Virus genome (UHGV): UHGV-0044886
DNA length: 27,363 nucleotides
Direction: 5' to 3' (one strand)
DNA from: a virus
The notes beneath the pieces were generated by a model. It was given only the letters and a program-made list of their open reading frames with translations. It was not told where the DNA came from and ran no database searches. Position 1 is the first letter of the stretch; each line of letters opens with the position of its first letter. Of the stretch, positions 23,549 to 24,821 are shown in pieces. A program made the translations under genes and the position numbers.

Positions 23549-23850
23549 TGCAACGGAAACTAACTAAGCGTAATAAAAATTGGTTGAGCAACATGCTGAA
23601 AAAAGCCAATCGCAACCATATGTACCTCAACGACTGGTTATCAATTAAAGGTAATCTCAGTGATGCAAAAATGACCGACAGACATGTTGCGCGCTATGGT
23701 GTTTCACTTGTCTTAGAAAAGGCTGAATTAGTATTTTCGGAATATTATTCCATTCCGCAAATTAGCTCCAAAGGAAAAATATGTGGCTATGTGCTCAAAC
23801 ATAAAAGCAAGCTGGATGAGCTTTTAGTCAGGGAAAAGGAGACGCAATGA
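23548..23850 (+). CDS. dbn: small basic protein downstream of ban (100 aa)
   Basis: ATG overlaps the ban stop (TAATG); position matches P1 dbn; function unknown. Confidence 0.5.
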   Translation: MQRKLTKRNKNWLSNMLKKANRNHMYLNDWLSIKGNLSDAKMTDRHVARYGVSLVLEKAELVFSEYYSIPQISSKGKICGYVLKHKSKLDELLVREKETQ

Positions 23851-24821
23851 ACATCCTGATCATTGGGCGAAAATTTGAAGCTATCAGTGATGTGAAAACA
23901 TATACGGAAATGTGGGCTTATAACCTGGCCTGCGCCTTTAGTGAGGCAGGGGTTACATTGCAATACCATCGTCCATATTCCCCCGGCGTCGAAAGCCCGG
24001 AGGATTATGTTGAAGCTGTGTTGACTGCTGCGACCGCATGTTCTGCGAAGGCCATTTTGGCACCAGGATTGAGGTATTTTACTACGGTGCCCAGGGAAAT
24101 AGGCGTGCAACTGCGTCGTCGATTCACTGGATGGGTAGCCCAGGTATACGACGGTTCTATGCTGGATTCGGCACCAGTCGATATTACTTTTACTGTCCGC
24201 GATGATACCTGGCGGTACCTGGATAATCCAGGCAGGTTAGAGCGTCATAATCGTTTTAACAAACATGTTGGATGGGCAGCGAATCAGGAGCTGTTCCATC
24301 TGGAAACCAAAACAGACGATGTTCTGCGTATTTTTGTAGACCATGCGGCATTTGATGTTAGTGGTTTTGATCACTCCTTAAGTATCCTTATGAACCTTCA
24401 GCGCCTGGCCGTTCCGTATGAGGCCATAACGTTGACCGATGACGGATTGGTTACCATTGATCCGGGGAATATTTCGGTAACTCCATACAGACGGACGCCG
24501 GTACCAGCAACCGAATTTGCAGCTGAATTGCGTAAGAGTGACGTTTTTATCGTTACGCATCCCGAAAGCCTTGGATTAACTGTTCTTGAGGCGGCAATGT
24601 GTGGGGCGTTGATATTAACGCCGCCAGATTGCCTTCCGCCAGATCGCCTGGCTTTGGTGAACCATATGGTTATCAAGTCGCGGATTGATTGGGATGAGGT
24701 TATTGCTCGCGTTGATCGCGTGAAAAATGCTGAAAAGGTCCAGTGTCACACCTGGTCGGCAATTGCGGAAAAGATGCTTGAGACGTTTATCACGCAGAAA
24801 CCGTCGCGCGGTAACGGATAA
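23847..24821 (+). CDS. glycosyltransferase-like protein (GT-B fold, GT4-like C-terminal motif)
   Basis: 324 aa; N-terminal MNILIIGRKF Rossmann-like start; C-terminal ...VTHPESLGLTVLEAAMCGALILTPPD resembles the GT4 E-x7-E donor-binding motif (EGFGLPVLEAMACGTPVI type). ATG overlaps the dbn stop (ATGA). Confidence 0.45.
   Translation: MNILIIGRKFEAISDVKTYTEMWAYNLACAFSEAGVTLQYHRPYSPGVESPEDYVEAVLTAATACSAKAILAPGLRYFTTVPREIGVQLRRRFTGWVAQVYDGSMLDSAPVDITFTVRDDTWRYLDNPGRLERHNRFNKHVGWAANQELFHLETKTDDVLRIFVDHAAFDVSGFDHSLSILMNLQRLAVPYEAITLTDDGLVTIDPGNISVTPYRRTPVPATEFAAELRKSDVFIVTHPESLGLTVLEAAMCGALILTPPDCLPPDRLALVNHMVIKSRIDWDEVIARVDRVKNAEKVQCHTWSAIAEKMLETFITQKPSRGNG

Follow-up and report, generated by a model that had tools for sequence, protein, structure and literature searches.

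Judged by its sequence, the 324-codon open reading frame flagged in the window (the whole 27,363-nt stretch of UHGV virus genome UHGV-0044886 that was analysed) is the phage P1 gene dbn; it is already catalogued and does not represent a new discovery. The gene has been rediscovered from the P1 reference annotation, and a swap of DNA methylation for DNA glycosylation, suggested in a preliminary description of this DNA, is unsupported. The structural model and the homologue alignment show Dbn as a predicted soluble, cytoplasmic glycosyltransferase with two Rossmann-like domains (GT-B fold) and the E-x7-E signature typical of retaining, GT4-type enzymes. This strongly conserved accessory enzyme of a classic model phage is maintained under purifying selection. 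We tentatively propose a glycan of the host envelope as its acceptor. P1-type phage-plasmids are widespread in Enterobacteriaceae as vehicles of resistance genes, and the acceptor of Dbn would tell whether they remodel the host surface.

Identity of the gene and layout of the ban operon

The flagged ORF starts with ATG, and its product is 97% identical to P1 Dbn over 324 residues. The GenBank record from which the P1 annotation was taken describes this protein (NC_005856 P1_gp078, YP_006544.1) as 'function unknown, possible glycosyltransferase', and the corresponding P7 protein, Glt (AAQ07543.1), is annotated as a 'putative glycosyltransferase' at the same position as dbn. The preliminary description, which assumed no glycosyltransferase at this position in P1 and gave the name dbn to the ORF upstream, was therefore mistaken on both points: the upstream ORF is not dbn, and the flagged ORF itself is. 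In P1 and in the window, dbn occupies the slot between ban and baseplate gene 5 in the same orientation. The synteny of the P1 dbn/P7 glt group is thus retained, with ban upstream and gene 5 convergent, and a 100-aa ORF lies in between. The name dbn stands for 'downstream of ban'. The protein also matches phrog_2518 (E 2.6e-231) and shares 97% identity with a protein cluster of 2431 member sequences, named 'glycosyltransferase family 4 protein' at NCBI.

The P1 annotation adds eight N-terminal codons (MQWNEEKP), so that dbn starts on the ban stop codon. Here, the ATG equivalent to that annotated start opens the separate 100-aa ORF, and dbn begins at MNILIIG, a start common to all members of the Dbn family. 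Both this N-terminus and the C-terminal motif PESLGLTVLEAAMCG can be read in the translation, as originally described. In P7, glt carries a nonsense change (TGG to TGA) at codon 23. Comparison of the window with P1 indicates that the difference is a small extra gene just upstream of dbn; in P1, the ban stop and the dbn ATG of the MNILIIG start are only 23 nt apart.

This single extra gene parts ban from dbn and overlaps both: its start codon shares bases with the ban stop (TAATG), and its TGA does so with the dbn ATG, in an ATGA arrangement reading GCAATGAAC. The preliminary claim that the glycosyltransferase starts on the stop codon of dbn is correct as to the ATGA overlap, but the overlapped stop belongs to the 100-aa ORF. 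Similarly, translational fusion to the helicase operon holds insofar as stop-on-start junctions follow the ban cistron and the small ORF, but the 100-aa gene intervenes between helicase and glycosyltransferase. The 298-nt segment containing the small ORF is present in 13 of the 83 P1-like loci and in 52 PLSDB plasmids, and was not found in P1, P7 or any of 18 phage-collection matches. No PADLOC model matched its product. The ban ORF opens with a GTG; from the length of P1 ban (1365 nt), the true start is probably the ATG at 22184.

The order of the operon is Op(ban), tRNAs, tciABC, ban, the 100-aa ORF (in this variant), dbn and a terminator hairpin. Op(ban) combines two overlapping sites that fit the C1 operator consensus, one with a single mismatch and the other with three, where chance alone would give 0.11 matches in the window; its location agrees with that of Op(ban[a]/[b]) annotated in P7. 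Inside ban, a predicted sigma-70-like site (TTGAGA-16-GATGAT, 9/12 matches) lies at the place homologous to the P2dbn promoter annotated in P1. A promoter scan of the window gave fewer sites than the shuffle mean, and the P2dbn-like site alone is not significant. The last plus-strand gene ahead of the hairpin is dbn, and the hairpin abuts the stop of the convergent gene 5. Its centroid energy is -17.6 kcal/mol, with a z score of -2.98 for the 71-nt segment; it was revealed by folding and was not listed by a terminator pattern scan. It is likely a bidirectional intrinsic terminator, in agreement with the earlier placement of the gene as the last before such a terminator facing the baseplate operon. 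The coordinates are given in the table.

Table. Features of the dbn locus (positions in the window)
Feature	Position	Strand	Basis
Op(ban), bivalent operator for the C1 repressor at the head of the C1-controlled ban operon	19556..19583		Consensus matches; P7 Op(ban[a]/[b]) annotation
ban, DnaB-like replicative helicase	22178..23548	+	Pfam DnaB_C E 6e-108, DnaB E 3e-35; P1/P7 annotation ban
Sigma-70-like site inside ban, equal to P1 predicted promoter P2dbn by constant coordinate offset	22911..22938	+	Prediction only
100-aa basic ORF (pI 9.9), function unknown, in a 298-nt segment of 39% GC	23548..23850	+	No such segment in P1 or P7
Shine-Dalgarno AAGGAG, 5 nt upstream of the dbn start codon	23836..23841	+	Read from sequence
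dbn (P7 glt), predicted soluble 36-kDa GT-B-fold GT4-like glycosyltransferase, the flagged ORF	23847..24821	+	P1 Dbn identity, phrog_2518, Pfam, AF2, Foldseek, pN/pS
E-x7-E motif (E240-S-L-G-L-T-V-L-E248), donor-sugar site signature of GT4-type enzymes	24564..24590	+	Homologue alignment
Hairpin, 11-bp stem, A-/T-run flanks, between convergent dbn and gene 5	24842..24868		RNA fold
Gene 5 (baseplate hub), convergent with dbn	24868..25500	-	ORF list; P1 annotation of homologue

Predicted fold, enzyme family and conservation

The AlphaFold (AF2) model of Dbn (pLDDT 94.9, pTM 0.90) consists of two halves of alternating beta-alpha elements, forming the two Rossmann-like domains with an inter-domain cleft that define the GT-B fold. 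A Foldseek search of the PDB returned 89 matches at E<=1e-3, and nearly all of the top 50 are GT-B enzymes. The best of them are GT4 enzymes, namely sucrose-phosphate synthase, GlgM, BshA, PimB' and WaaG, at 10-13% identity. In BFVD, viral glycosyltransferases were matched, the best being a Tupanvirus enzyme (TM 0.79-0.82). The search for the enzyme family called for in the preliminary description returned GT4 and viral glycosyltransferases, consistent with the GT-B-like assignment made there.

Profile evidence for the GT4 class is borderline. Pfam Glycos_transf_1 (PF00534) matches only the C-terminal part of Dbn, with E 3.6e-5 and 23.8 bits, under the gathering cut-off of 26.4 bits; the precomputed Pfam column of the P1 cluster does list PF00534. 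Searching NCBIfam gave only a sub-threshold match to a sucrose-phosphate-synthase domain. The E-x7-E motif adds residue-level evidence: H238, E240, S241, G243 and E248 are invariant among 64 homologues, and the motif can be aligned with ES(L)GL..LEA in the putative glycosyltransferase PDB 8xsg and with PF00534 positions 83-169. Dbn has no hydrophobic segment at the transmembrane level, and its pI is 5.6. It shares the GT-B fold, the C-terminal E-x7-E and the soluble or peripheral character of CAZy GT4/Glycos_transf_1 enzymes (WaaG, PimA/PimB', BshA, sucrose-phosphate synthase), but it is shorter, at 324 aa, and very divergent from them. An exhaustive profile search collected 421 Dbn relatives only (clusters at 50% identity), with no merging with mainstream GT4. 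Dbn belongs on this clustering to a discrete family, small at about 420 clusters, that is enriched in phages; none of ten representative clusters looked up is named.

Among P1-type phage-plasmids the gene is conserved and evolves under purifying selection, although plaque formation does not require it. Of the 83 P1-like loci, 82 carry it intact, with a pN/pS of 0.12 over 53 alleles; together with the 2431-member cluster, these values bear out the 324-aa ORF as a real gene and speak against dbn as a decaying remnant. Near-full-length matches were found in 436 PLSDB plasmids for dbn, compared to 432 for ban. By CRISPRi, dbn is non-essential, and its knock-down causes no plaque defect (PMC10695390). 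In the literature searched on dbn/glt function, the gene appears only in this CRISPRi essentiality table and in one transcriptome mention, with no functional study and no acceptor or donor assay. Dbn matched none of the PADLOC defence-system models.

Candidate acceptors of Dbn

Members of the Dbn family occur in capsule loci, in the multi-glycosyltransferase cassettes that temperate phages carry, and in a structural module of a phage. The capsule locus that contains a 41%-identical homologue is of the ABC-transporter type and includes KpsC/S-like, KpsD-like and MptE/WaaZ-like genes; a gene order resembling this locus is present in Brucella pseudogrignonensis. The 56%- and 46%-identical homologues (lambdoid, P2-like phage) belong to cassettes with sialyltransferase-like (phrog_4603) and GT-A (phrog_1962) genes. 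The homologues in large phages are clustered with genes for cytidylyltransferase, pyruvyl-transferase, GT8 and methyltransferase enzymes, and a few kb separate the cluster from terminase and putative head genes. In an HK97-type phage, the head-tail connector and head-closure genes flank a 34%-identical homologue, after which come GT8-like, sulfotransferase and methyltransferase genes. Fusion to a methyltransferase or to a second glycosyltransferase occurs in some members of the family. The scan of genome contigs for homologues used a single peptide pattern and yielded four loci. None of the homologues in other elements adjoins a DnaB helicase; they neighbour glycosyltransferases, capsule genes or head-tail genes.

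We propose, with a confidence somewhat short of an even chance, that Dbn is a soluble retaining glycosyltransferase which adds a sugar to a host envelope glycan, and that its target is not DNA. As part of the C1-repressed ban operon, dbn would be made mainly after derepression; the two internal promoters are predictions only. The enzyme would take a nucleotide-sugar from the host, because no sugar-activation gene is annotated in the closest complete plasmid. Working on the cytoplasmic side of the membrane, it would attach one sugar to a pre-existing host envelope glycoconjugate. The obvious candidate acceptor would be the LPS core, which is the P1 receptor, and a capsule or another lipid-linked glycan intermediate may also be considered. 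The resulting surface change would mask the receptor or exclude other phages.

The capsule-locus and multi-glycosyltransferase contexts of the homologues speak for an envelope acceptor. Against it, the element does not have the partner glycosyltransferases of these homologues, and the argument from context transfers loosely to a solitary enzyme: a tblastn search of the window with all proteins of the multi-glycosyltransferase cassettes matched dbn alone, and neither the phrog_1962 GT-A nor the phrog_4603/MptE-like partners were found. In addition, a C1-repressed early operon suits a role in the lytic phase more than classical lysogenic conversion, and the homologue inside a head-tail module points to virion glycosylation. 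We know of no altered LPS phenotype of P1 lysogens.

Two known systems resemble the proposed logic, in which the glycosyltransferase of a temperate element alters a surface glycan and thereby phage or immune recognition, although the likeness is an analogy only. TarP of S. aureus is a prophage-encoded cytoplasmic glycosyltransferase that remodels host surface glycopolymers; it has a GT-A fold, in contrast to the GT-B fold of Dbn. The GtrABC modules of P22 and Shigella phages comprise the flippase GtrA, the bactoprenol GT2 enzyme GtrB and the membrane glycosyltransferase GtrC. Dbn has no transmembrane segment, and no GtrA, GtrB or GtrC is present in the window or annotated in the closest complete plasmid.

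Two more specific readings seem to us quite unlikely: that Dbn masks the LPS-core receptor of P1, and that the 100-aa basic protein is a helicase-associated factor. If the first were true, a sugar placed on the LPS core by Dbn from the early operon would reduce both superinfection and the number of progeny lost to cell debris. This would be a one-gene, cytoplasmic, lytic-phase surface conversion, which is not described for P1. The second is based on the translational coupling of the 100-aa protein to ban, seen both in the window and in distant P1 relatives without dbn.

The main rival to an envelope glycan is protein, that is, a P1 virion protein (capsid, sheath or tail fibre) or another phage or host protein; we regard this as unlikely. 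It would fit the homologue within the HK97-type head-tail module, the homologue clusters near terminase and putative head genes, the position of P1 dbn next to the baseplate operon, and the presence among the PDB fold matches of GtfC and Gtf3, enzymes of similar size that extend protein O-glycans. Mycobacteriophage glycosyltransferases have likewise been linked to capsid glycosylation (PMC11256854). These are encoded in structural operons, where the HK97-type homologue is similarly placed, whereas P1 dbn belongs to the early C1-controlled operon, converging on the late baseplate genes and not co-transcribed with them. The primary report of the mycobacteriophage link is that of Freeman et al. 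2023. The lack of a plaque defect on knock-down (PMC10695390) also argues against a virion target, as do the nearest homologues (41-56% identity), which reside in capsule loci and moron-type cassettes, outside structural modules. There is, to our knowledge, no reported P1 glycoprotein.

A small soluble acceptor, such as a metabolite, cofactor, compatible solute or signalling glycoside, is improbable. The best PDB fold matches do include enzymes of this kind (sucrose-phosphate synthase, GlgM, BshA and a tetrahydrobiopterin glucosyltransferase), but their 10-13% identity and TM scores of 0.6-0.67 are typical of any GT4 pair, and the neighbours of the homologues are polymer-building enzymes and polysaccharide export genes.

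Glycosylation of phage DNA or of a replisome component, as an anti-restriction substitute for a broken dmt, is extremely improbable, despite the shared operon with the helicase and the frameshift in dmt. Some phage DNA glycosyltransferases do have a GT-B fold, and that of phage HY126, whose DNA carries arabinosylated 5-hydroxycytosine (PMC13326640), ranks eighth in the fold search (E 1.6e-7, 12% identity), but this match is no better than those of dozens of generic GT4 enzymes. The T4 enzymes AGT and BGT are absent from the top 50 PDB matches, and beyond the fold there is no specific similarity of Dbn to the T4 glucosyltransferases or to the 5hoC arabinosyltransferases. Like Dbn, the phage DNA glycosyltransferases (the T4 alpha- and beta-glucosyltransferases and the arabinosyl-5-hydroxycytosine enzymes of RB69, DLP3 and HY126) are small soluble GT-B proteins (PMC13326640). 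The known kinds of DNA glycosylation, however, depend on a thymidylate-synthase homologue that supplies a hydroxylated or hydroxymethylated base (PMC13326640), and such enzymes act with a phage-made hydroxylated pyrimidine, often alongside sugar-activation genes. In the closest complete plasmid (NZ_CP009051, 97-kb), whose PLSDB gene table is incomplete, no thymidylate-synthase-like hydroxylase, sugar-nucleotide gene or flippase is annotated, which answers the question of partner genes raised in the preliminary description in the negative for that table. Moreover, no homologue adjoins DnaB, and relatives with an 82%-identical Ban have no dbn. Ordinary restriction enzymes cut P1 DNA, and methylation is its only known modification. 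The adjacent dmt is indeed broken, by a 1-nt deletion, but dbn is also present where dmt is intact (P1, P7 and p15648-1), so the frameshift has no evident link to dbn and an alternative DNA-modification strategy is not indicated.

The slot between ban and gene 5

In a P1 relative from Cronobacter JK004, Ban is 82% identical and the slot between ban and gene 5 holds other genes in place of dbn. Salmonella P1-like elements have the same layout, again with other genes in the slot. We infer that the slot is a cargo site whose contents vary among P1 relatives. A functional linkage between the helicase and dbn is rejected on the grounds that relatives with an 82%-identical Ban have other genes there, and the tie between the two genes is probably only positional.

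Identity and fold of the dbn product

The preliminary description presented the 324-residue ORF as a glycosyltransferase-like gene with no counterpart at this position in P1. It is P1 dbn: the window is ~98% identical to P1 across roughly 25 kb, as a P1-type phage-plasmid, and the encoded protein is 97% identical to P1 Dbn (YP_006544.1). The P1 record already reads "function unknown, possible glycosyltransferase", and P7 carries the gene as glt, "putative glycosyltransferase". The gene was therefore known and had wrongly been taken as absent from P1; the name dbn had also been misplaced onto the ORF upstream, which is the 100-aa ORF. 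The physical observation was correct, as ORF, stop-on-start overlap and 3′ hairpin facing baseplate gene 5 all lie where described. The dbn ATG overlaps the TGA of the 100-aa ORF (GCAATGAAC), with a Shine–Dalgarno sequence (AAGGAG) 5 nt 5′ of it, and the ATG of the 100-aa ORF overlaps the TAA of ban.

Features of the dbn region and of related loci
Feature	Position	Strand	Remark
hrdC/rdgC	16286-17305
dmt, bifunctional C5/N6 DNA methyltransferase	17302-19565	+	frameshift near 19088; resulting stop 19090-19092
Op(ban), bivalent C1 operator	19556-19583		upstream of ban operon genes
CAT-anticodon tRNA	21823-21898	+
ban, DnaB-like helicase	22178/22184..23548	+	Pfam DnaB_C, E 6e-108
100-aa ORF	23548..23850	+	directly 5′ of dbn
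dbn	23847..24821	+	ATG start, 324 aa
Hairpin, 11-bp stem	24842-24868		between dbn and gene 5; centroid -17.6 kcal/mol, z-score -2.98
Baseplate gene 5	24868..25500	-	convergent with dbn
P1 (L001, NC_005856) annotated dbn start	3149-3172		on ban stop; 8 extra residues, MQWNEEKP
P7 (L002, AF503408), stretch within glt locus	3173-3284		TGG-to-TGA nonsense, codon 23
Multi-GT cassette, L011	6352-9619
Multi-GT cassette, L098	4349-7047
Multi-GT cassette, L003	5190-10395
Multi-GT cassette, L007	5136-11130
Multi-GT cassette, L009	7420-11179
Multi-GT cassette, L109	6312-10259
Multi-GT cassette, L110	4575-7553
L104 (NZ_CP009051) "serine O-acetyltransferase"-type gene	29190-29762		outside window
L104 GNAT acetyltransferase	3664-4272		outside window

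The 64 aligned members of the family all begin at the position of MNILIIG, which argues that the extra codons annotated in P1 probably lie outside the enzyme. The annotated P1 start is probably either too early or left over from a 100-aa ORF that was deleted; in the window, the equivalent ATG opens that ORF. P7 glt is annotated from an internal methionine (Met38 of the window's protein) because of its nonsense codon.

The glycosyltransferase assignment holds at the level of fold, although the Pfam Glycos_transf_1 match (residues 221–307) scores 23.8 bits, below the gathering score of 26.4. The AlphaFold model, built on 64 homologues (pLDDT 94.9, pTM 0.90), has two Rossmann-like halves. Its Foldseek matches in the PDB are GT-B enzymes with GT4 members on top, led by sucrose-phosphate synthase (E 5.5e-10) and including GlgM, BshA, PimB′ and, lower, WaaG, at 10–13% identity; among viral proteins the best match is to a GT of Tupanvirus (TM 0.79–0.82). 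H238, E240 and E248 of the E-x7-E motif and, on the acceptor side, D102, W143, D165 and H166 are invariant among the 64 homologues. No membrane-spanning segment was found in Dbn. We regard its identity as P1 dbn and its class, a GT-B, GT4-like enzyme, as settled. An exhaustive profile search covering 1.84 billion representatives returned only 421 relatives (196 at E<=1e-30), and the family forms a small, discrete GT-B group, not part of mainstream GT4.

Homologues and the candidate acceptor

A homologue of 41% identity belongs to a bacterial polysaccharide locus of the ABC-transporter type, with KpsM/T-like, KpsC/S-like and KpsD-like genes and a large GT, with an MptE/WaaZ-like gene immediately 5′; Brucella pseudogrignonensis has the same gene order. 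Homologues of 56% and 46% identity, carried by a lambdoid phage and a P2-like one, lie in overlapping-gene cassettes with sialyltransferase-like/MptE-like proteins (phrog_4603, phrog_2111) and, directly 3′, a DLD-motif GT-A protein (phrog_1962, "glycosyltransferase"). In phage-like contigs of 47–281 kb the homologue precedes one to three phrog_1962 paralogues, beside cytidylyltransferase-cupin, pyruvyl-transferase, GT8/GT47-like and methyltransferase genes. Such multi-GT cassettes, combining phrog_4603, phrog_2111 and 1–3 tandem phrog_1962 genes with cytidylyltransferases and pyruvyl-, sulfo- and methyl-transferases, are conserved across lambdoid, P2-like, HK97-like and 47–281-kb phages. In L098 the portal and gpA genes flank the cassette and, next to it, a gene for a KAP NTPase, at what may be a variable or defence-gene region of P2-like prophages. 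In some members of the family a methyltransferase or another GT is fused to the Dbn-like part. On this evidence the Dbn family consists of glycan-building enzymes, carried by phages as cargo.

None of the cassette partner genes is present in the window, and a Citrobacter phage-plasmid of another type (95 kb) holds a solitary 56%-identical copy that does not adjoin a helicase. Standing alone, P1 Dbn must act on something already in the cell. We tentatively place first, at slightly under even confidence, a host envelope glycan, above all the LPS core, which serves P1 as its receptor. A homologue of 34% identity sits within an HK97-type head-tail module, with GT8-like, sulfotransferase and methyltransferase genes after it; a protein or virion acceptor ranks second and seems unlikely, and a small-molecule acceptor, third, is improbable.

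DNA, the acceptor originally proposed, ranks last and is very improbable. Known phage DNA glycosylation targets hydroxymethyl- or hydroxy-pyrimidines, the products of thymidylate-synthase homologues; sugar-activation genes often accompany these (PMC13326640). The suggested check for partner flippase or base-hypermodification genes came out negative: the annotation of p15648-1, the closest complete relative (97 kb; 100-aa-ORF segment 100% identical to the window's), has no thymidylate-synthase-homologue, sugar-activation or flippase genes. The phage HY126 GT is among the fold matches of Dbn, but generic GT4 enzymes rank at least as high.

The ban-to-gene-5 interval

The 100-aa ORF lies in an AT-rich 298-nt segment (39% GC) that separates the ban stop from the MNILIIG start of dbn. 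This segment is absent from P1, P7 and all 18 phage-collection matches; 52 PLSDB plasmids carry it. Among 83 P1-like loci, 70 have the P1-type layout and 13 that of the window. The protein is basic (pI 9.9) and its gene is stop-on-start coupled to both ban and dbn; its confident AF2 model (pLDDT 92.9) gave no fold match. Homologues (28–40% identity) occupy the same post-ban place in Cronobacter phage JK004, whose Ban is 82% identical to the window's, and in Salmonella P1-like elements; rV5-like coliphages also carry them. In JK004 and the Salmonella elements the homologue sits on the ban stop, followed by 3–4 small ORFs and the baseplate genes, with no dbn in the ban-to-baseplate interval. Therefore, this interval is a variable cargo slot. 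The proposed helicase link stands as stop-on-start packing behind ban and the 100-aa ORF, but what is consistently coupled to ban in these relatives is the 100-aa ORF rather than dbn.

Near-full-length matches in PLSDB plasmids number 436 for dbn and 432 for ban. The gene is intact in 82 of the 83 P1-like loci, P7 being the sole exception, its pN/pS is 0.12 (53 alleles), and a genome-wide CRISPRi screen found it non-essential for P1 plaque formation (PMC10695390). Thus, dbn is an accessory gene under selection and does not belong to the replication or morphogenesis core.

Regulation and the dmt frameshift

Op(ban) is followed by tRNA-Asn, tRNA-Thr, tciA, tciB, the CAT-anticodon tRNA, ban, the 100-aa ORF and dbn, and we infer that Dbn is made mainly once C1 repression is lifted. 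The P1 record places two sigma-70 promoters inside ban, as predictions only; one was recovered in the window, by pattern alone. ARAGORN calls the CAT-anticodon tRNA tRNA-Met; the homologous P1 gene is recorded as tRNA-Ile2, its CAT anticodon read as Ile after lysidine modification.

The broken dmt had been put forward as a possible sign of an alternative DNA-modification strategy. The gene is indeed out of frame, through loss of one T (GTTTTTGT-CC versus GTTTTTGTTCC in P7 and p15648-1) that brings a stop ahead of the Dam-domain DPPY motif; this could reflect a genuine pseudogene or an error in sequencing. However, elements with an intact dmt carry dbn just the same, and the two are therefore unrelated. 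The ORF at 16286-17305 is hrdC/rdgC and does not belong to dmt. Outside the window, L104 (p15648-1) carries two acetyltransferase genes, one of them, the "serine O-acetyltransferase"-type gene, adjoining a tail-fibre assembly gene; either could be further surface- or fibre-modifying cargo.
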